Shown piece after piece: positions 27,504 to 64,000 of a stretch of DNA of 64,000 bases. The notes under the pieces were generated by a model. That model worked only from the letters and a program-made list of their open reading frames with translations. It was not told the origin of the DNA and did not search any database. How positions within the stretch are numbered: the stretch's first letter is position 1; every line of letters starts with the position of its first letter. Location: positions 66,748 through 130,747 of the forward strand of contig CAZPAW010000002.1 of NCBI GenBank assembly GCA_964584895.1, in the 5' to 3' direction. The translations under genes and the position numbers were made by a program. Source of the DNA: an uncultured Candidatus Saccharibacteria bacterium (lineage in GTDB: Bacteria; Patescibacteriota; Saccharimonadia; Saccharimonadales; JAGQNJ01).

Positions 27504-27541
27504 TTGGCACTCTTGACATGAGAGTGCTAATTTCATAATAT
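27504..27541 (+). promoter_or_regulatory. CIRCE operator overlapping the clpC promoter
   Basis: TTGGCACTC-ttgacatga-GAGTGCTAA (27504-27530) versus the consensus TTAGCACTC-N9-GAGTGCTAA. TTGACA (27513-27518) lies in the spacer, then 17 bp, then TAATAT (27536-27541). Confidence 0.75.
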
Positions 27542-27593: not shown

Positions 27594-30068
27594 ATGCACC
27601 CAAATTCATCAGACTTTCAAGAATTTTTAAACCACTTGTCAGAAAACGCATTGCAAAGTTTGCGTCATGCGGATGCAATTGCAAGAACCGCTAACGATCC
27701 ATATGTCGGCACTGAACATTTACTTTTAGGTGTTTTAGCTCAAGAAGGATCTTTGGGGCATAAGATTTTAGTAGACGCCGGTGTAACTTTAGAAAAAGCA
27801 AGAGTCGCACTAAAGCTCAATCCAAAAAATATCATTATTAATCTTGGTGCAAAAGGCCTGAGTGAAACAGCGAAACTGACACTTAAGATGGCTTATGATA
27901 TCGCACAAGAGTTTAACCAAGAGTTATGCGGTACAGAACATATTGTTTATAGTATTTTGAGTCAAAAAAATGCACGGGCTACAGTCTTAATTAGAGAGAT
28001 GAGTGTTGATGTTGATAGGTTGGTAGCTGAATTAGAACAATTCTTGAATAAACAACAGTATAGCGAATCAAACGGCATAAGTTCATCTAAACGTACAAAA
28101 AAGACACGAAAAACAGCTTTAGATTTTTTTGGGACTGATTTAACTCTTCAAGCAAGAGAAGTAAAGTTAGACCCAGTTGTTGGCAGAGACCCTCAAATTC
28201 GACGCCTTATTACAATTTTAAATCGAAGAACCAAAAACAATCCTGTTTTGATTGGGGAGCCAGGTGTTGGTAAAACTGCAATAGTCGAGGGTCTAGCTCA
28301 AAGAATTATTAGTGAGGACGTACCAGATAGTCTGCTTGAAAAGCGGGTTGTTATGCTTGACTTAGCTGGAATGATTGCTGGTACAAAATACAGAGGTGAA
28401 TTTGAAGATAGATTAAAAAAGGTAATGGCTGAACTAGAACAGAATAAGAATACTATAGTCTTTATAGACGAACTTCATTTAATAGTTGGGGCCGGTTCTG
28501 CTGAAGGGGCTATGGATGCAGGCAATATTTTAAAGCCAGCATTGGCACGCGGAAAAATACAATTAATTGGCGCAACAACTACTAACGAATACACTAAACA
28601 TATTGAAAAAGATGCAGCTTTAGAACGTAGACTGCAACCAATCCAAGTACCAGAGACGAGTATTAATGAAACGATAGCTATATTAAAGGGTTTGAGAAAA
28701 AATTATGAGTCTTTCCATGGAGTAACAATCAGTGATGACGTAATTGAGGATACTGTACAACTTGCAAAACGATATATAAATGACAGGTTTATGCCAGACA
28801 AAGCGATTGATTTGATTGATGAAACAGCAGCGCATTTAAGATTAGACAAAGGACGCACTCCGCCCGAAGTACGCAGATTAAAGCAAGAACTAAAACTTTT
28901 AAATACAAGAATCGAAGATGCTGTAGAAGCCGAAGATTACGAAAGAGCGGCTCAAAATAAGCAACGAGCAAGCCAAATTCAAGAAGAACTCAAAAAACTA
29001 CATTCAGATGAGAAGAACAATAAGCCTCTTACAATGAGCAGTGATGATGTTGCGGCTACTGTAGCAAGAATAACTGGAGTACCGACAAAGAAAGTAATAC
29101 GTTCTGAAGCAAAATACCTTATGACCTTAGAGAAGTCATTAGGAAAATACGTAATAGGTCAAAATGAGGCTGTTGAAGCGGTCTCTAAAGCAATTCGCAG
29201 AAACCGTTCAGGTGTAGGTAGCGAAAAACGTCCTGTAGGTTCATTCATATTTTTGGGCCCGACAGGGGTTGGAAAGACTGAACTTGCACGAGTCTTAGCA
29301 AGAGAATTTTATGGTTCTGAAGAAGCTTTGGTTAAGATTGACATGAGTGAATTCAGCGAAAGACACACAGCTGCTAGGTTGGTTGGAGCACCTGCTGGCT
29401 ATGTAGGGTACGATGACGGCGGACAATTAACAGATAAAATCAGGCGGCAACCGTATAGTCTAGTTTTGTTTGACGAAATTGAAAAAGCACATCCTGACGT
29501 GTTCAATATGTTACTTCAAATGCTTGAAGATGGACATCTGACTGATGCAAAAGGTAGAAAAATTGATTTTACTAATACTATTGTAATCATGACTAGTAAC
29601 ATTGGGGCTGAAAAACTTCAGAAAGAAGCTAATCTTGGATTCTCTGCAACATCTGCAAAACAATTAGAAAACCTTGACGAACTACATAAAGCAAACAAAG
29701 ATAAAGTGCTAGATGACTTAAAAAAGATGTTACGACCAGAACTAATTAATAGAATTGATAAAATTGTAGTATTTAGAGCGTTAACCAAAAAAGATATTAT
29801 TAAGATTCTTGATCTTCAAATCGAAGAACTCCGAGAACGACTTGTCAAACACGGCTTAAGCGTAAAACTAACTTCTAAAGCAAAGAAATACATGCTAGAC
29901 AATGGTTATGATTCTAAAAACGGCGTGAGACCACTTAGAAGATTGCTGCAGGATACCTTAGAGGACTATATTGCTAGCGAACTATTAACGGATCAGTACA
30001 AAAAAGGAGATATTGTATCCATCGATTCAAACAAAAAAGAGCTAGTCTATACAGTTACCAACGAATAA
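27594..30068 (+). CDS. clpC: ATP-dependent Clp protease ATP-binding subunit ClpC
   Basis: 824 aa. Clp_N repeats, two AAA+ modules ([16 protein letters not shown]) and a UVR-like linker. Confidence 0.93.
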
Positions 30069-46672: not shown

Positions 46673-47059
46673 ATGAATGCTTCGAACTATATTGAATTAT
46701 TCGACAAAGTTGAAAGCGGTCAAGATCTTGCCAGATTCGCGGACGCTTTGGCTGATAATTACCCTGTAATGGGCCCACGGATACATGAATTAATGTTTAA
46801 GTACCATGAAATTTCCGACTTAGGTACTGACCCACTAGATAATGTATATTCACGACTCAGTCAACTGGCTGAGGAAACTATCAAACAGTCGTTAATGGGC
46901 GGTAGCCAAGCTCAGCTTCTGCTACCCACAACCTTCAATAGGCTAAACAGGCAATCACATAAAGATCAAGGAAATGAAAACCCGCCAGTAGAAGGAATTA
47001 TCGGTTATGCAAGTCTAGGGCTTGCAGCAATATTCAGAAGATTAAAAAAAGATAGTTAG
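46673..47059 (+). CDS. Hypothetical protein (128 aa) between tig and clpP
   Basis: TGTTATAAT (46658-46666) plus 6 nt, then the ATG. C-terminal hydrophobic helix (IIGYASLGLAAIF). The stop codon lies inside the clpP CIRCE element. Confidence 0.5.
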   Translation: MNASNYIELFDKVESGQDLARFADALADNYPVMGPRIHELMFKYHEISDLGTDPLDNVYSRLSQLAEETIKQSLMGGSQAQLLLPTTFNRLNRQSHKDQGNENPPVEGIIGYASLGLAAIFRRLKKDS

Positions 47060-47092
47060 CACTCTTGACGTGAGAGTGCTAATTGATATATC
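47056..47092 (+). promoter_or_regulatory. CIRCE operator overlapping the clpP promoter
   Basis: TTAGCACTC-ttgacgtga-GAGTGCTAA (47056-47082) matches both consensus 9-nt arms exactly. TTGACG (47065-47070) lies in the spacer. TATATC follows about 16 bp downstream. Confidence 0.8.
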
Positions 47093-47121: not shown

Positions 47122-47715
47122 ATGTCATCAAGTTCAGTTTTAATTCCAACTGTTATAGAGTCAGACGGACGCGTTGAACGAGCCTATGATATCTATTCAC
47201 GTTTACTTAAAGACCGAATAATTTTTTTGGGTACTGACGTTAACGAGCATACCGCTAATTTGATAGTTGCTCAATTATTGTTTTTAGAGTCGGAAGATCC
47301 AAAGAAAGATATTAAACTGTATATCAACAGTCCTGGCGGTAGTGTATATGACGCTTTAGCAATTTACGATACTATGCAATTTGTAAAAAATGATATTGAA
47401 ACAGTTGGTATAGGTATACAAGCAAGCGCAGCCGCTTTTCTATTAAGTTCTGGAACTAAGGGGAAGCGTTTTATACTAAAAAATGCCACAGCTATGATTC
47501 ATCAACCATCAGCCGGCACAAAAGGCAAAGTAACTGATATGGAGATCGATCTAAAAGAAGGTATCAGAATCAAACATAAACTAAACGAGATTATGGCAAA
47601 AAATACCGGAAAACCAATCAAACAAGTTGAAAAAGATATGGATAGAGATTATTGGATGACATCAGACGAAGCCGTAAAATATGGTTTAGCAGATAAGGTG
47701 ATATCAAAACGCTAG
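47122..47715 (+). CDS. clpP: ATP-dependent Clp protease proteolytic subunit
   Basis: 197 aa. The ClpP family pattern is present ([14 protein letters not shown], active-site Ser context [14 protein letters not shown]). RBS GGAG. Confidence 0.95.
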
Positions 47716-48089
47716 CCCTACCTAGTGTTCAGAATTTTTTAGGAAGAAAATGGCATAATTTGAAAAATTTTTTCTAACAAGGACTTATACTGGTCTTTAC
47801 TAAGGGTTAATTTAAAAAATACTAACATTTACAGACGCAGCTATCGTAACTAATTCTTAAAATTACACTAAATCGAATGAAACTATTATTGTTGGTAATA
47901 CTATGATTTTTCATAGTTTGCGAAAAGTAATAAAATAAAAACTTGACATAATACTTTTGTTATATAAACTACTTATTAAGAAGTAGGGTAAGCGGGCCTT
48001 GCTATAATTTATCAAAAAATTGTGTAAGCTACCCCTTAGAGATCTTCGTTCAAAATCAATCTAACAGATTCAAGGAGAACTTGCTCTAT

Positions 48090-56345: not shown

Positions 56346-56549
56346 ATGTTAGTAAAAAGTCTTCAAAGTCTAGAAATAGGTATTGCTAATAGGCTAGTTG
56401 AGCGAGAAGAAACCTTAGAGCAGTCATTTCGAACTGGCGAGAATAGAAGCCCTCTCAATCTTGAAGTACTTGGTTTAAGAGCTTCCCACTTAATAATGAG
56501 CGCAGTTGTTTCAGTAGCAGAAATATTAATACCTAGGAGTACAGAATAA
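56346..56549 (+). CDS. Hypothetical protein (67 aa) inserted between rpsG and fusA
   Basis: Starts 3 nt after the rpsG stop, and its stop abuts the next ATG. No family recognised. Confidence 0.4.
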   Translation: MLVKSLQSLEIGIANRLVEREETLEQSFRTGENRSPLNLEVLGLRASHLIMSAVVSVAEILIPRSTE

Positions 56550-56813
56550 ATGACAGATTTAAATGTTGATTCATTGATACCTGAAAAATGTAGAGATGCG
56601 AATGGCCAAGGCTGTGGTGAACTAAAATTAAAAATCGAAGAAGATGTTGCGTTAGGTGTTGACCCATCAACCTATTCCCTGCATTGGGCTGACAAATTAT
56701 GTAGTGGTTGGAGCGAGGAAAATGGTTGTGGGCACGCAGGCATTGGAATGATGCAATGTGTTGGTGAATTAGCAGTAGAAATATTTAACAATAGAAGGCA
56801 TGGAGAACAATAG
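56550..56813 (+). CDS. Hypothetical Cys-rich protein (87 aa) inserted between rpsG and fusA
   Basis: Five Cys ([27 protein letters not shown]). Its TAG overlaps the fusA GTG by 1 nt. Confidence 0.45.
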
Positions 56814-58900
56814 TGGCGGATAAAAAAATTGATCTAAAAAATTATAGGAACATCGGCATTATCGCGCATATTGATGCTGGTAAAACCACGACAACTGAAG
56901 GTATTCTTTACCGTACAGGATTAAAGCACAAAATTGGCGCTGTTCACGAAGGTGAAACTACAACTGACTGGATGGAGCAAGAGCGAGAACGTGGAATCAC
57001 AATCACCTCTGCCGCTGTTACTTGCTTCTGGAAAGATCACAAGATCAATATCATCGATACGCCAGGACACATCGACTTTACTGCAGAAGTTGAACGATCG
57101 CTTCGCGTGTTAGACGGGGCTGTTACGGTATTTGACGGTAAAATGGGTGTAGAAAGCCAATCAGAGACCGTATGGAGACAAGCTAATAAGTATAACGTTC
57201 CTCGCATCTGTTTTATTAACAAAATCAATCAAACGGGTGGCGACTTTTACAAATCTCTTGACACTATTCATGCGAGACTAACTAAACGAGCTTTCCCTAT
57301 ACATTTGCCTATTGGCTTTGAGCAGTCAATTAATGGAATCATTGATCTGATTAATATGAAGGCCTACACATATAAAGAGTTTACCGATCATGAATTGGTG
57401 GAGTCTGAAATACCTGAAGATATGCTTGATCAGGTCAAAAAGTATCGTAGTCTACTAATCGAGAATGCTGTAGCAGAGGATGAAAAGATCTTAGAAAAAT
57501 TCTTTGAAGTTGGCGAAGAAGGACTGTCGGAGGACGAAATCCGACAAGCTGTGCGAACGGCAACACTAACTAGTGACTTTTTTCCTGTAACGGGTGGCGA
57601 TGGACGCGGGGTTATTGTAGAGAAAGTACTTGACGCTGTTAATGACTTTTTGCCAAGTCCACTTGATCGTGGTTCTGTCTGGGGTACACATCCTAAAAGT
57701 GGTGACGAGATCGAGAGAAAACCAAGTGAAACTGAACCAATGTCAGCGCTTGCTTTCAAGATTGCAACAGACCCATTTGTAGGAAAATTATGTTTCGTTA
57801 GAGTTTACTCAGGCAAGCTTCAAGCTGGTTCATATGTTTACAACAGTTCTACTGGCGAAAAAGAACGCGTTGGACGAGTTGTACGAATGCAGGCCGATAA
57901 ACGCGAAGATATAACTGATATTAGTGCTGGTGATATTGCTGCCATCGTTGGACTCAAGGGAACAACTACTGGTAACACTTTATGTGATGTTAACAATACA
58001 GTAGTACTAGAGAATATCACATTCCCTGATCCACCAGTGTCAATTGCGATTGAACCAAAAACGAAAGCCGACCAAGAAAAGATGGGTATTGCACTGCAAC
58101 GTTTAGCAGAAGAAGATCCAACCTTCCAGGTAAAAGTTGATCACGAGACTGGTCAAACGATCATTAAGGGTATGGGTGAGTTACACCTAGAGATTATTGT
58201 TGATCGAATGAAACGCGAGTTTGCAGTCGAAGCTAACATCGGTCAACCTCAAGTTGCTTACCGCGAAACTATCCGTAAAGATGGTATTGAAGTGCAGGGC
58301 AAATTCATTCGTCAATCTGGTGGACGTGGTCAATATGGTGATGTATGGCTTCGTTTGTCTCAGAACGAACAAGGTAAAGGATTTGAATTTATTAACAAAA
58401 TTAAAGGTGGCGTAATCCCGGCAGAATATATAAAACCAGTTGAAGAAGGTATCAAAGAGGCTATGAACAATGGTGTGTTAGCAGGATACCCGGTCGTTGA
58501 TATTGTTGCAGAACTCTACGATGGTAGTTACCACGATGTCGACTCGAGCGAAATGGCCTTTAAAGTTGCTGGGTCAATGGCTTTGCAATCAGGTGTTAAA
58601 CAAGCATCGCCAGTACTACTAGAACCTGTCATGAAAGTTGTTGTTGTAACCCCAGAAGAATTCATGGGTGAAGTTATCGGGGACCTCAACAGTAAACGTG
58701 GACGAATTGAATCAATGGAAGACTTAACCGCGGGAATCAAAGAGATTACAGCGTTCGTTCCTCTGGGTGAGATGTTTGGCTACACCACAAACTTACGAAG
58801 TAATACTCAGGGTAGAGCTAGTTCAAGTATGGAACTTGACCACTACGAAGATGTTCCTAACAACGTCGCCGAAGCTATTATTGCTAAAAACAATAAATAG
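56813..58900 (+). CDS. fusA: Elongation factor G
   Basis: 695 aa with a GTG start after GGAG. Motifs AHIDAGKTT and DTPGHIDF. Confidence 0.97.
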
Positions 58901-58917
58901 AAATATAATTAATCAGA

Positions 58918-59118
58918 ATGCCAGAACAACGGACGCAAGTAGAAAACGAACAACTAGGTACGCAGTGCATGTTTTATGCTGCGCTTGGAGGATATTCTTT
59001 ACCAGCAGAAGGTTTTAGTATTAACAAAATTATACCCGAAAACATTCCAGACCACGCAGCAAAAAGTCTAGAGAGAATAGCTTTTTTTCTTGATCTAGTC
59101 AGTAATACTGATAATTAG
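58918..59118 (+). CDS. Hypothetical protein (66 aa) within the fusA-3'-end duplication
   Basis: TATAAT (58904-58909) plus 8 nt, then the ATG. Lies between the functional fusA end and its displaced 84-nt copy. Confidence 0.4.
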   Translation: MPEQRTQVENEQLGTQCMFYAALGGYSLPAEGFSINKIIPENIPDHAAKSLERIAFFLDLVSNTDN

Positions 59119-59131
59119 AAAAGTGTAACGC

Positions 59132-59215
59132 GCTAGTTCAAGTATGGAACTTGACCACTACGAAGACGTGCCTAACAACGTCGCTGAAGCAATCATCGCT
59201 AAAAATAGTAAATAG
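59132..59215 (+). pseudogene. Displaced, diverged copy of the last 27 codons + stop of fusA
   Basis: 84 nt, 76/84 identical to 58817-58900. The first 35 nt are identical. Seven of the 8 differences are synonymous in the fusA frame (ends KNSK* versus KNNK*). Confidence 0.85.
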
Positions 59216-59281
59216 TACAAAATTTACAAGAAACTAATAGCGATACAAAAAAGACCCTTAGAATAAATTGCTACACTGTCA

Positions 59282-60082
59282 CTATTTAGTTACATTTGTT
59301 CCATCAGTGAAGTATTTGCCAGTATTAAAATCTGATCTCATTCGAGTGTAATCACCGGTAGGCAAAGGGATACTTTTAACCCTAATGGCGGCAATATCTA
59401 TCGGATCACCCAGAATCGCTACGTATATTCTAGCCTTTACTTGTCGATTAACTGGATTACCGAAGTTATCGGTGTCATATATATATTCATTAAAACCATA
59501 GCAACCTAACCGACGTGCAGTTTTATTACTTTCTTTCCTGTGATCATATGAAGTATTGCTGGTCGTATACCATGATTTTGCTCCCTCTCGGTATAAACGA
59601 ATGTTAACATTCGTATTCCAGCTTTTTGCCTTCCAGCATAGCTGTACTGCCATAGGACGATTTTTGGTGTTCACAGGCTTTGGAATAATAAAAGACTTAG
59701 ATATGTATGTCATTCTTGGGATGTTTGGACTACTTCTGGTTCTCCAGCCATTTAGCTTTAAACCTTTAGAATTAGTTGATACCTTGATTTTATTTCCAAC
59801 TGACCTCCATTTAACTACCGGAATACTACGGTCATATTCATCTTCATTGTTATTTTCCTTAGCGCCATCGTCATAATTTAGTACTTTAATCGGCTTTTTC
59901 TCTACAACATCCCCAGCTGGATAAGTTTTACTATAATTTTTGGACTTCGCATTAGAGCTCTTTATATTTAAGATATCCTGATTATACGCAACGTATCCTA
60001 GCAGTAGCATCGTTAATGATAACAAGCCAATTATTAACAATGATACTTTAGATTTATTTAGTTTGAATGTTTTTTTATTCAT
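59282..60082 (-). CDS. Signal-anchored secreted protein, paralog 1 (266 aa)
   Basis: N-terminal TM (VSLLIIGLLSLTMLLLGYVAY). Shares SKNYxKTYxAG, RPMAVxxCW, CxGF and VKAxxxx motifs with the adjacent ORF. Confidence 0.65.
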   Translation of the reverse strand: MNKKTFKLNKSKVSLLIIGLLSLTMLLLGYVAYNQDILNIKSSNAKSKNYSKTYPAGDVVEKKPIKVLNYDDGAKENNNEDEYDRSIPVVKWRSVGNKIKVSTNSKGLKLNGWRTRSSPNIPRMTYISKSFIIPKPVNTKNRPMAVQLCWKAKSWNTNVNIRLYREGAKSWYTTSNTSYDHRKESNKTARRLGCYGFNEYIYDTDNFGNPVNRQVKARIYVAILGDPIDIAAIRVKSIPLPTGDYTRMRSDFNTGKYFTDGTNVTK

Positions 60083-60121
60083 AGTTTTTACTAATTAAGG
60101 GATTGTACAGATTACACTAAA

Positions 60122-60955
60122 CTATTTCGTTATATCAACCTCGTTTTGTCTTTCGTAATATGCGTTTTCTGGTGGTTTTGTTGGTTCGAAAACTTTAACA
60201 GACGCGAGTTCAATGCCGCCTTCAGGGACTTTAATGAATAGTTTTGCTTTAACCGACTTACTAACTTTTTTCATGTATTGTCCGGGTTTTATTGGCTCGT
60301 TTTGTGGGTGTGATCTAGGGACTACTTGTTGATAGACGACATCATAAAAGCCCCAGCATGCAATTTCACGATAACGATTAGGGTCGGCTTCAAATTGATG
60401 TGTATAGTTTTTATGATATAAGCCAGCCTTGGTTCTCCACACATCTTGGACGCCTTTGCTTAAACGTAGTTTTATAGAGGTATTTTTACTTAAAGCCCGC
60501 CAACAAACATATACAGCCATTGGACGTTTTGATTTAGGTATAGTGAACCATTTACTTAAATAGACCCATCCTTCATTTTTGCTAGTGTATTTTTCATCGG
60601 CGTGATTCATTGTCCAGCCGTCAATAGTAGGACCGCCTGGCTTTGCAGGCATTTTTATAGTTTTTCCCTGCGATGCGACACTTACGAGTTTACCTCTTTC
60701 GTATTTGTAGCCAGCAGGTTTATAATTAACTAATTTTCCCGCAGCATAGGTCTTATTATAGTTTTTTGATTGGGCTTCGGAGTCTAAAAGATTGAATATA
60801 CCATTTTTGACTGCTATATATCCGAATAAAAACACTACCATTAGTACGACTAGAAAAAGTATCAAAGTCAGATTAGATTTTTTAGTTTTAACACTTTTTT
60901 TGTTTTTCATGTTCTTTTTGGTTAACACGGTTTTTTTCCTATTTTTTCTTTTCAT
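60122..60955 (-). CDS. Signal-anchored secreted protein, paralog 2 (277 aa)
   Basis: Very basic N-terminus followed by a TM (LTLILFLVVLMVVFLFGYIAV). Collinear motif matches with paralog 1, including two conserved Cys. Confidence 0.65.
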   Translation of the reverse strand: MKRKNRKKTVLTKKNMKNKKSVKTKKSNLTLILFLVVLMVVFLFGYIAVKNGIFNLLDSEAQSKNYNKTYAAGKLVNYKPAGYKYERGKLVSVASQGKTIKMPAKPGGPTIDGWTMNHADEKYTSKNEGWVYLSKWFTIPKSKRPMAVYVCWRALSKNTSIKLRLSKGVQDVWRTKAGLYHKNYTHQFEADPNRYREIACWGFYDVVYQQVVPRSHPQNEPIKPGQYMKKVSKSVKAKLFIKVPEGGIELASVKVFEPTKPPENAYYERQNEVDITK

Positions 60956-61147
60956 TTTATATTTAAATATCTTTATTTTAATTATTACTAATTTAACTAT
61001 AATCGAAATTATTCATATATGTCAATTTTTGTAAATACGTTCTTTCTTTACATAATTAACAAAATTCGATACTATTAATTAGTATCTCGCGTGAGTATTG
61101 TATACTTATGCTAAATATTTAAGTAAATAACAGGAGTAAACAACAAA

Positions 61148-62329
61148 ATGGCAGATTTCGATAGAAGCAAACCACACGTTAACGTAGGAACAATGGGACA
61201 CGTTGACCACGGTAAAACTACACTTACGGCAGCAATTACAGCAGTATTAGCTAAAAAACTTCCGAGTGACGTAAACAAACCAGTTAAATACGATGAGATT
61301 GACAAAGCACCAGAGGAAAAGGCTCGTGGTATAACCATAGCAACTTCTCACCAAGAGTACGAGAGTAAAAAACGTCACTACGCTCACGTTGACATGCCAG
61401 GTCACGCAGACTACGTCAAGAACATGATTACTGGTGCCGCTCAAATCGACGGCGCTATTTTGGTTGTATCTGCAGCTGACGGCCCTATGCCTCAAACCCG
61501 AGAACACGTACTGCTTGCAAAACAAGTTGGCGTACCATCTATCCTTGTTTTCATGAACAAAATGGATCTTGCAGATCCAGAACTAGTGGAACTTGTAGAA
61601 ATGGATATCCGAGAACTGTTAGGTAAATACGAATTCGACGAGAATGCTCCTATCATCAAAGGTTCTGCAACAAAAGCCCTTGAAGGTAGCGCAGCAGACG
61701 AAGATGCCGTAATGGAATTAGTCGATAAAATGGATGAATACGTACCAGAACCAAAGAGAGATCTTGATAAAGATTTCTTGATGGCTATTGAAGATGTGTT
61801 CTCTATTAAGGGACGTGGAACAGTAGCGACTGGACGTATAGAACAAGGTGTAGTAAAGGTTAACGAAGAAGTCGAAATTGTTGGTATCCACGATACTAAA
61901 AAGACTGTAGTAACAGGCGTAGAAATGTTCAAGAAAAATCTTGATCAAGGTCAAGCTGGTGATAATGTCGGAATCTTGCTACGAGGAATCGAACGAGACG
62001 ATATTGAACGTGGTCAAGTTTTGGCTAAACCAGGTTCAATTACACCTCATACAGAGTTTGATGCTGAAGTATACGTGCTAACCAAAGAAGAAGGCGGACG
62101 TCACACTCCATTCTTCAAAGGTTATAAACCACAGTTTTACTTCCGAACAACCGATGTGACTGGTGAAGTTGAACTGCCAGCCGACAAGGAAATGGTCATG
62201 CCTGGTGATACAGTAACTTTCAAGGTTAAATTGATTCAACCGATTGCTATGGATCAAGGACAACGTTTTGCTATCCGCGAAGGCGGACGAACGGTAGGAG
62301 CTGGTGTTGTAACTAAGATTACTAAATAA
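61148..62329 (+). CDS. tuf: Elongation factor Tu
   Basis: 393 aa with GHVDHGKTT and [17 protein letters not shown]. Confidence 0.98.
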
Positions 62330-62346
62330 GTAATCCGAGAAACCAT

Positions 62347-62380
62347 AAAAGAGCCTCCAAAAAATGAGGCTCTTTTAAAT
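62347..62380 (+). terminator. Rho-independent terminator after tuf
   Basis: Stem AAAAGAGCCTC / GAGGCTCTTTT (62347-62357 / 62366-62376) with an 8-nt loop and a T-rich tail. Confidence 0.75.
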
Positions 62381-62498
62381 TTTGATACTATGTTGTACAA
62401 TAGATACACAAATTAATCGTGATGACTAAAAGTCGTTGTAGTTGATCTAAATATCATTACAAAGATGTTACATCGCACAGATAGAAAGGTAAAAATCA

Positions 62499-62885
62499 AT
62501 GACTGACGCCGACAAATCGACTCAATCTAAGAAAACATCCATAAAAAATAGCGAACCAAAAGAAAAAGCCGTAGCTTCAACTAGTCAACGGATAAGAATA
62601 CGTTTAAAAGCATATGATCATAAAGTAATCGACCAAGCAACAAAACAAATTGTTGATACGGCAATCAGAACGGGCGCAAATATCGCTGGGCCAATCCCAC
62701 TACCTACGCGTAGAACTGTATATACAGTAGTAAAAAGCCCTCATGTCTTTAAAAAAGGACGAGAGCAATTCGAAATGCGTACTCACAAACGACTTATCGA
62801 CGTATTAGAACCAACACCTAAGACAATTGATTCATTAATGAACCTCAGTTTACCAGCTGGTTGCGACGCCGAAATCAAGATGTAA
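62499..62885 (+). CDS. rpsJ: Ribosomal protein S10 with about 28-aa N-terminal extension
   Basis: The S10 core starts at [12 protein letters not shown]. No in-frame ATG lies closer to the core than 62499. Confidence 0.9.
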
Positions 62886-62895
62886 ATTTTGTAGT

Positions 62896-63297
62896 ATGAA
62901 AATGCGTGAAATATCTGACCAGCAATTAAGAAATAATATTGAATATCATGAAGATTACTCAACACTCCAAAGTTATGCGCCGATTGGTTGTAGGGCATGT
63001 CCTCAAGTAGTATCCTTCGCAGAAAAATTAGCGCTGAACGTACTACGGAACGCTAGTCAATATAACTTCAGAAGAACAAGAGTAAAGTCAGTTGATGAAA
63101 TGAAGCGTGGCCAATTAATGCTTGAAGCAGCTGAATTGATGAGTCGAAGATTTGAATTATGCCCTGGGCCAAGCATAGTTGATCCAAACAATGTTGACGA
63201 GAGTCTAAAGCTACCTGTTAGCGGTTTATTTTCAGAAACACACCATATTCCTAATATAGCTGAGGAGTGTGGCTTACCGCATACCGAACAGCAGTAA
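62896..63297 (+). CDS. Hypothetical protein (133 aa) between rpsJ and rplC
   Basis: ORF begins 10 nt after the rpsJ stop. TAAATT (62883-62888) plus 7 nt precede the ATG. No family recognised. Confidence 0.45.
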   Translation: MKMREISDQQLRNNIEYHEDYSTLQSYAPIGCRACPQVVSFAEKLALNVLRNASQYNFRRTRVKSVDEMKRGQLMLEAAELMSRRFELCPGPSIVDPNNVDESLKLPVSGLFSETHHIPNIAEECGLPHTEQQ

Positions 63298-63318
63298 AAA
63301 ATCTGTTATAATCTGATT

Positions 63319-63582
63319 ATGGCAAAAAAACAAAAACGTGCGCGAGAAACTGATGACGCATACTTTCTCAAATTAGTACTGTTTATGATTTTAGGTTCTA
63401 TGTGGTTAAAAGTTAGCGATGGGCAAACTTGGCAAATTCCATTACCTGTAGGATTACTTTTTGGGATTCTACTAGCTCGGCATGATCATTTTCAAATTGA
63501 CAGAAAAATTGAATATGCAGTTTTACTTATTGCAGCATTCATAGGTTTTTGGGCCCCAATCGGCATCTACATAAACTTGTAA
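63319..63582 (+). CDS. Small membrane protein (87 aa) between rpsJ and rplC
   Basis: TGTTATAAT (63304-63312) plus 6 nt, then the ATG. Probably two or three hydrophobic helices. Confidence 0.5.
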   Translation: MAKKQKRARETDDAYFLKLVLFMILGSMWLKVSDGQTWQIPLPVGLLFGILLARHDHFQIDRKIEYAVLLIAAFIGFWAPIGIYINL

Positions 63583-63739
63583 TATACACAACATATTGAC
63601 AGAGGTAAGTTATTTGTGCTAATCTGTTATGGTATCAAGAAAATCCTTGGTGATTCTAGTGAAGGTTTGTCTCGTTTAACAGAGACAAAAACCACATAAG
63701 AGCCAATTTTTTTATGCAAATAATTGAAAGGGTCTAAAC

Positions 63740-64000
63740 GTGGACTTTAAGAGTCTTATTACAACTAAAATTGGAACAACAAGTACCATCAACGAGGACG
63801 GTAGCGTTGAAGCAATTACTCTTTTGTCTGCGACTCCCAATACAATTACACAAATTAAGACAACCGAAAAAGATGGTTATAATGCACTGCAAATAGGATT
63901 TGAGAACAAAAATCAATCAAAACTCGGCAAAGCACTTCTCGGTCATGTCAAAAAATCAAAAGTTATGCCTCGAATTATCAAAGAAGTGCGAATCAATGAA
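63740..64000 (+). CDS. rplC: Ribosomal protein L3, 5' part (runs off the window)
   Basis: GTG 63740 opens a frame reading VDFKSLITTKIGTTSTINEDGSVEAITLL...TEKDGYNALQIGF...LLGHVKK. This is typical of the L3 N-terminus. The ORF is not in the supplied track. Confidence 0.85.
   Translation, partial: MDFKSLITTKIGTTSTINEDGSVEAITLLSATPNTITQIKTTEKDGYNALQIGFENKNQSKLGKALLGHVKKSKVMPRIIKEVRINE

Follow-up and report, generated by a model that had tools for sequence, protein, structure and literature searches.

Displacement of a gene end has been described in several bacterial systems. For rhs genes a single crossover with a circular intermediate has been proposed, and only by that route is the old tip moved downstream and not lost (Jackson et al. 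2009, PMC2935791). For effector modules of type VI secretion systems (T6SS), displacement by homology-facilitated illegitimate recombination was proposed (Kirchberger et al. 2017, PMC5361080). In cultivated Saccharibacteria, natural competence and the integration of DNA by homologous recombination have been demonstrated (PMC10633639). Here we analyze a 64,000-nucleotide stretch from an uncultured Candidatus Saccharibacteria bacterium (contig CAZPAW010000002.1, positions 66,748 to 130,747; hereafter the window), in which the 3' end of fusA, the gene for elongation factor G (EF-G), is present twice, and the two copies flank a 66-aa open reading frame (ORF), ORF66. We consider it probable that this structure is the scar of recombination between close relatives with different contents in the spacer between fusA and tuf, with no dedicated mobile element involved. 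Its best reading is a one-off displacement of the fusA C-terminal end.

A second, diverged fusA end follows an intact fusA gene

The fusA gene occupies 56813-58900 on the plus strand, within the gene order rpoB-rpoC-rpsL-rpsG-fusA … tuf-rpsJ, and encodes an intact EF-G of 695 aa, with 84-97% identity to EF-G homologues, the full set of Pfam domains and a length as in relatives. The last 84 nt of the gene (58817-58900, copy A) are present again at 59132-59215 (copy B), with 76 of 84 positions identical and no insertions or deletions. The first 35 nt are the same in both copies (35/35; 58817-58851 against 59132-59166), and the eight mismatches, at offsets 35, 38, 53, 59, 62, 65, 74 and 76, all fall within the remaining 49 nt, a clustering that has a chance probability of P = 0.010. 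Seven of the eight are synonymous third-position changes in the fusA frame (P = 0.0026 for at least seven of eight on third positions), and the eighth is a second-position change, AAT in copy A and AGT in copy B, by which copy A ends in KNNK* and copy B in KNSK*. The initial annotation of this DNA had reported the 84-nt repeat with these same identities, substitutions and endings, and we reproduced all of them; its description of the locus as an insertion scar is likewise supported by the structure.

The two copies lie 315 nt apart from start to start, with 231 nt between them. Their similarity has sharp edges, the left one at 58817/59132 and the right one at the stop codon, and no homology was found beyond the 84-nt repeat on either flank, where alignment was no better than for shuffled sequence. 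Positions 59216-59446 are unrelated to 58901-59131, so the second unit does not repeat the whole of the first and the units are not adjacent. Across the 64-kb window this pair is the sole substantial direct repeat, the runner-up being 34 nt at 71% identity.

Tail A (58852-58900, plus strand) is the last 49 nt of the functional fusA and is 16% diverged from its counterpart, tail B, and the 35-nt identical block that precedes it (58817-58851, plus strand) is the probable crossover zone. Copy B, on the same strand, reads as a displaced, non-functional relic of a fusA 3' end that terminates in KNSK and leads on into two paralogous genes downstream. Because of an in-frame TAA two codons upstream it lies outside any long ORF, and its own reading frame and stop codon are still intact. 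The 13-nt spacer between ORF66 and copy B (59119-59131, plus strand) is unlike the sequence left of 58817 and ends at a non-homologous junction between 59131 and 59132.

We compared this arrangement with two of the nearest relatives found, L001 (GCA_964510945.1) and L002. Their fusA DNA is in both cases ~81% identical to that of the window, the FusA protein of L001 is 97% identical, and the EF-Tu protein, encoded by tuf (61148-62329, plus strand), is identical in both. Alignment of the fusA-tuf region with relatives, which had been suggested at the outset as a check, recovered states without the insert: in L001 and L002, minus-strand paralogues follow ~60-70 nt after the fusA stop. Positions 7060-8694 of L001 are colinear with 59129-60760 of the window, that is, with copy B and the sequence downstream of it, and since this alignment runs from the fusA tail into the paralogues, copy B is contiguous with the clade-typical layout. 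The paralogues in the window are paralogue 1 (59282-60082, minus strand, 266 aa, with an N-terminal membrane anchor and no known domain), which has syntenic homologues directly after fusA in both relatives, and paralogue 2 (60122-60955, minus strand, 277 aa), of the same family; a Pfam and PHROG search of the two gave no match. At about 125 other Saccharibacteria fusA loci no second fusA tail was found, each having a single tail, and in a Smith-Waterman scan for a decayed second tail the window scored 128 and all other loci at most 36.

Two smaller sequence features lie in or close to the repeat. The 9-mer AGTAATACT, which codes S-N-T, occurs shortly before each copy, at 58799-58807 in fusA and at 59100-59108 at the ORF66 C-terminus. 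Its distances to the repeat are unequal by 14 nt, and its recurrence is probably due to chance, as there is no extended homology around either 9-mer. A conserved hairpin in the 35-nt block (TCAAGT-N5-ACTTGA) was considered and rejected, given 30 C-A mismatches over 123 tails and no covariation.

The two tails resemble alleles from closely related genomes

Tails A and B both code E679, N683 and N684. In the 90%-identity FusA cluster, members besides the window's own end in …ADVP[SG]HVAEAI[IV]AKN[SA]K. Given that the three residues are common to both tails and missing in the nearest relatives, donor and recipient are likely to have been close kin. No other sampled tail is nearer than 72/84 to copy A or to copy B, which together with the shared residues makes A and B mutual closest relatives, both of the window's narrow lineage. 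The KNNK ending of copy A was found in no other FusA examined; KNSK is as in the nearest relatives. A codon-degenerate pattern for the FusA C-terminus found matches confined to genomes of Saccharibacteria or Patescibacteria, save two otherwise-labelled bins, and such a pattern for the E..NN-type fusA tail had no match in the metagenomes of the Joint Genome Institute (JGI).

On the sequence evidence, the simplest reading is that the two tails are alleles, each of which would have evolved in a working fusA of a different genome before they were recently brought together. This agrees with the initial annotation, which had taken them for two fusA alleles under coding constraint and not for a slippage duplicate, and both the substitution pattern and the unrelated sequence at the corresponding positions of the second unit bear it out.

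The direction of the exchange is less sharply indicated. Codon style had been put forward as a way to tell which copy is local; scored against the local highly expressed genes, tail A has a log-likelihood of -6.1 and tail B of -8.2, which amounts to a weak preference for tail A and no more. When the eight differences were polarized with L001 and L002 they split 4:4, which is uninformative at ~80% identity. For tail A and ORF66 as the incoming side speak the synteny of copy B with the nearest relatives and its ancestral KNSK ending, and by parsimony with these relatives we lean slightly toward this direction. The reverse, in which tail B and the paralogues would have come in with a right-hand crossover in or beyond tuf, takes an equal number of steps and appears somewhat less likely.

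Contig ends in independent runs place the repeat in two contexts

Logan assemblies are built with k = 31 and hold each 31-mer once per accession (PMC12424806), so that a 35-nt repeat present in two copies must break their contigs. If the block has two left neighbours, a contig of the fusA body is predicted to end at 58846 (58817 + 29), as against 58851 for a mere strain fork downstream, and a contig coming from the right side is predicted to end at 59137 (59167 - 30). Contigs L130 (ERR4450749) and L134 (SRR11524805) end at 58846, and contigs L128 (SRR13355620) and L139 (ERR4450749) end at 59137. Up to the break each of the four matches the window at 100% identity, with L130 deviating only at its far 5' end. 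These contig ends match the prediction and indicate that, in the reads of independent runs, the 35-nt block occurs with two left neighbours and with two right ones. When we searched via the paralogue and via orf133, a species-specific gene downstream of tuf, every same-species contig ended at the repeat or within tuf.

The 11 differences between L130 (10.9 kb) and the window all lie within ~37 nt (47941-47977) at the far end of the contig, just upstream of rpoB. This cluster represents either a local hypervariable patch or contig-end noise.

ORF66 is a member of a rare family

Apart from a nested ORF of 31 aa, ORF66 (58918-59118, plus strand) is alone among ORFs of 30 aa or more in being contained entirely in the 231-bp insert; a separate ORF reaches into the insert from the fusA side. 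The initial annotation had correctly placed both this gene and a TATAAT 8 nt upstream of it, the latter being part of a predicted promoter. A hidden Markov model search (hmmsearch) of 1.8 billion representative proteins returned three homologues, P0002 (83 aa), P0136 (78 aa) and P0137 (78 aa), with E values from 4e-47 to 4e-15, which together with ORF66 make up an uncharacterized four-member family. Its members share the motif Y-A-[AS]-L-G-G-Y-x-L-P-x-E-G-F-S … R-[LI]-x-F-[FY]-L-D-L, and an exact copy of ORF66 occurs in its own genome only (P0001). Since similarity to the homologues exists at the protein level only, we regard ORF66 as a coding gene of a rare family. It matched nothing in Pfam or PHROG, and its AlphaFold2 model, which has a C-terminal helix at residues 45-64, is of low confidence (predicted local distance difference test score 60), too low for use in a fold search.

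Closer inspection of the homologues showed that they occupy varied surroundings. P0002, in genome L005, has a MOSC-domain gene on one side and an RRM gene on the other, and P0136 is on short contigs, too short for a flanking-repeat scan. P0137 sits inside the fusA-tuf spacer of another Saccharibacteria lineage (L138), where the order is fusA, a 134-aa ORF, P0137 and tuf; all of these are plus-strand genes, and the spacer has neither paralogues nor a second fusA tail. The homologues in L005 and L138, the two that were scanned, showed no flanking repeat, and no relatives of the family were confirmed in JGI metagenomes and viral contigs. A search for the insert elsewhere, also suggested at the outset, was thus productive for ORF66, with its three homologues, but not for the fusA-tail unit, which was not found at other fusA loci.

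A promoter-like site, TTGCTA-17 nt-TATAAT (58881-58909, plus strand), matches the consensus at 10 of 12 positions, and its putative function rests on this consensus match. The TATAAT (58904-58909) lies 8 nt before the ORF66 ATG, and the -35-like TTGCTA, 17 nt further up, falls within tail A; tail B has TCGCTA there (ATT in A where B has ATC). ORF66 starts 17 nt past the fusA stop without a Shine-Dalgarno sequence, and with its ATG placed 8 nt after the -10 element a leaderless mRNA from this site, which overlaps the fusA stop, is possible. Expression of the gene is probable, whether it starts at the promoter-like site or results from read-through of the str operon, and no terminator-like site was seen after it.

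The fusA-tuf spacer is hypervariable and carries a mosaic in a sister strain

Across 80 Saccharibacteria genomes the fusA-tuf spacer measures 113-3813 bp. It is hypervariable, and it is bordered by two of the genome's most conserved genes, with tuf as the right border. Both spacer variants exist in nature, as shown by P0137 in the paralogue-free spacer of L138 and by the paralogues after fusA in L001 and L002.

A sister strain, represented by Logan contig ERR4450749_1659 (L139/L141) and found by the paralogue search, shares 59137-59893 and 61656-64000 with the window at 100% identity. The 1.76-kb segment between them (59894-61655) has 45-92% identity, with 648 mismatched or gapped alignment columns, and reaches from the N-terminus of paralogue 1 across the whole of paralogue 2 and the tuf promoter region into tuf, of which it takes in the first ~510 nt; the sister-strain tuf is 86.5% identical when measured over its first 540 nt. 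Judged from this alignment, homologous recombination has made a mosaic of the locus, the breakpoints of which fall inside paralogue 1 and tuf, and outgroup comparison suggests that the imported piece is carried by the ERR4450749 strain. The mosaic indicates that donors ~14% diverged recombine into the fusA-tuf spacer in this species, and this ~14% matches the 16% between tails A and B.

The paralogues belong to a family of tandem, membrane-anchored genes of 225-310 aa with no known domain that fill the fusA-tuf spacer. Two copies are present in the window, three in L001 (7208-9808) and four to five in L002 (6164-9688), and the family comprises only 16 clusters among 5.8 billion proteins.

Probable recombination between close relatives and its alternatives

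The fusA-tuf spacer of Saccharibacteria comes in variants, one with plus-strand small genes that include an ORF66-family gene after fusA and another with the minus-strand, membrane-anchored paralogues there. We propose that DNA of a close relative with the other variant would enter the cell and pair with the highly conserved fusA 3' end, which would act as the anchor. A crossover would then occur within the 35-nt block, a position suggested by the fact that nowhere else is perfect identity long enough for RecA-type exchange, and the other end would be joined at the junction between 59131 and 59132 without homology, through a one-ended or circular mechanism. The topology would be equivalent to Campbell-type integration, in which a circular molecule of 315 bp enters by a single crossover. 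As an outcome, fusA would be complete and in frame by way of tail A, ORF66 would come next, and tail B would be shunted downstream as a silent relic joined to the paralogues. The fusA of the window is intact apart from one conservative residue change.

Import from another strain by homologous recombination, one of two routes raised in the initial annotation, is favored by the ORF66 homologue native to the fusA-tuf spacer of L138 and by the 1.76-kb mosaic of the sister strain. The accompanying remark that no recombinase is adjacent also holds: none lies in the insert or among its neighbors, which are fusA, the paralogues and tuf, and none was found anywhere between rpoC and rpsJ. Scans of the surroundings of the repeat gave no tRNA and no Rfam family either.

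Several points weigh against recombination between relatives. An empty-site strain of the same species was found in none of the collections searched, and a donor genome, in which fusA with tail A would be followed by ORF66 and no relic, was found neither in the protein collection nor in the JGI metagenome and viral scans. The direction signals are split, with synteny and KNSK pointing to B as native and codon style weakly to A. There is no recognizable microhomology at the junction between 59131 and 59132, with the donor side out of view. A circle of 315 bp would be very small, and RecA-dependent exchange has a lower limit of identity to which 35 nt comes close. Lastly, ORF66 was not recovered from the Logan runs, where its presence is deduced from contig ends only, presumably because a contig of ~340 bp is too short for the protein index.

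The alternative that survives best, although we consider it unlikely, is a site-specific integrative mini-element or eroded island remnant that targets the fusA 3' end and supplies a replacement tail, with the 35-nt block as its attachment (att) core. The direct repeats that flank the insert do have an identical core and arms that have diverged, fusA is restored in frame, and relatives with an empty site exist. However, the 231-bp insert holds just one ORF, of 66 aa, which matches nothing in Pfam or PHROG, the absence of a recombinase extends from rpoC to rpsJ, and the arrangement is unique among the roughly 125 Saccharibacteria fusA loci. The ORF66 homologues occur at other sites, with no flanking repeat at the two scanned, and viral contigs yielded no relatives. 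The other route of the initial annotation, a cassette aimed at the 3' end of an essential gene in the manner of islands at tRNA or transfer-messenger RNA (tmRNA) genes, is disfavored on the same grounds, as there is no integrase and no recurrence, and two of the three homologues lie elsewhere or in unknown surroundings.

A little less likely still is duplication within a single genome, by which the 84 nt would have been copied upon insertion of ORF66 as a long target duplication, with subsequent divergence and later gene conversion of the first 35 nt. Such a history requires one lineage only, and the shared sharp left boundary would be expected from it. A non-coding relic, however, should change faster than the constrained copy and without regard to codon position, and in-place divergence of a silent relic is disfavored because this is not what is seen: seven of eight changes are synonymous and at third positions, there are no indels, and the frame and stop of the relic are intact.

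We give little credence to a variant in which the 315-bp unit of tail A, ORF66 and the 35-nt core would be a minimal, enzyme-free integrative cassette, excised by RecA as a circle at the 35-nt repeats and re-inserted behind fusA after uptake. Were this true, a gene would hitch-hike on the most conserved 3' end nearby, always restoring that end, and the presence or absence of ORF66 in the population would be reversible.

An assembly artefact, with two strain haplotypes of the fusA end concatenated in a metagenome-assembled genome, is the least likely of all and very improbable: the samples do hold strain mixtures of this species, and contigs also break in tuf where strains differ, but haplotype concatenation cannot create a 231-bp insert with a conserved gene, a mis-join would still require a molecule with a fusA tail after ORF66, and the fusA-body contigs of other runs end at 58846 and not at 58851, which gives the 35-nt block two left neighbors in the reads.

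Under recombination between close relatives, the reading we prefer, the locus would be a clean, datable footprint of gene gain in uncultivated, host-dependent Saccharibacteria, with a conserved essential gene as the recombination anchor. The displaced gene end would record a divergence of ~15% between donor and recipient, and a very short stretch of identity (35 nt) may suffice for integration. Together with the sister-strain mosaic, it would mark the fusA-tuf spacer as a hot spot of gene exchange in the phylum, which could be of use for population-genomic models and for the choice of insertion sites in engineering Saccharibacteria.

Neighboring genes and other features

A change at the same gene end as the fusA repeat is seen in P0128 and P0134, two proteins from ENA in the same 90% FusA cluster. 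Both are 722 aa long, as the stop after …AKNSK is replaced by Q, and their 27-residue extension, QNALQTGMDYIQLTGISREYYILMLNN, constitutes a natural stop-loss.

Small ORFs sit within the str/S10 ribosomal operons on either side of the locus (56346-56813 and 62896-63582). On the fusA side, orf67 (56346-56549) is also present in L001 and L002, and a Cys-rich orf87 (56550-56813), which abuts the fusA start, is confined to this species. On the tuf side, orf133 (62896-63297) is likewise confined to this species, whereas conservation of a membrane-like orf87 (63319-63582) extends to 25 loci. No gene-end duplication was found flanking any of these four ORFs.

Elsewhere in the window, two near-identical 29-nt palindromes lie just upstream of clp genes, one (27504-27532) before a gene for a ClpC-type ATPase (27594-30068) and the other (47056-47084) before clpP (47122-47715). 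Both fit TTAGCACTC-N9-GAGTGCTAA, which we take to be the consensus of the CIRCE (controlling inverted repeat of chaperone expression)/HrcA operator, and this suggests that the Clp genes of this Saccharibacterium may be under HrcA-type control.

Comparison with known systems

The layout at fusA closely parallels tip displacement in rhs, contact-dependent inhibition (CDI) and T6SS loci, where behind an intact gene there come first a new downstream gene and then a body fragment with the alternative 3' end and the old downstream genes. As in those systems, the body piece is identical (35/35), the tip differs (8/49) and no recombinase is present, and the proposed mechanism is shared, whether a single crossover with a circle or homology-facilitated illegitimate recombination. 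The differences lie in the gene and in the scale of the event. fusA encodes a housekeeping translation factor and not a polymorphic toxin, its two tips differ by one residue (N versus S) so that nothing is diversified, and there is one displaced tip instead of an array, with a body fragment of just 35 nt. Neither ORF66 nor the paralogues have a match among toxin or immunity families, and no toxin-immunity logic is evident for ORF66.

Genomic islands, integrative and conjugative elements and prophages that insert at the 3' ends of tRNA, tmRNA and protein genes also leave the gene end duplicated as direct repeats around the insert, with the gene intact and the displaced native end at the far side. 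The fusA insert differs from these in its size of 231 bp, in having no integrase or excisionase, and in not recurring at the same target. Unlike at an att site, the similarity of the fusA repeat ends exactly at the stop codon and its differences are nearly all synonymous, which is a signature of allelic homology.

Classical homology-facilitated illegitimate events usually delete recipient DNA and do not duplicate the anchor, and their non-homologous junction often carries 3-10 nt of microhomology. At fusA the anchor is duplicated, and its identity is very short. In other respects the locus resembles homology-facilitated illegitimate recombination and insertion-duplication in natural transformation, to the extent that these are described through the citations of de Vries & Wackernagel 2002 and Prudhomme et al. 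2002 in PMC5361080: one end would be anchored in conserved sequence, the other joined without homology, and a short piece of foreign DNA would lie beside the anchor, in a host phylum that is naturally competent (PMC10633639). Collectively, these comparisons place the event proposed at fusA among those of a known kind, without establishing a new mechanism, and make it a new, unusually clean example of it at a housekeeping gene of an uncultivated phylum.

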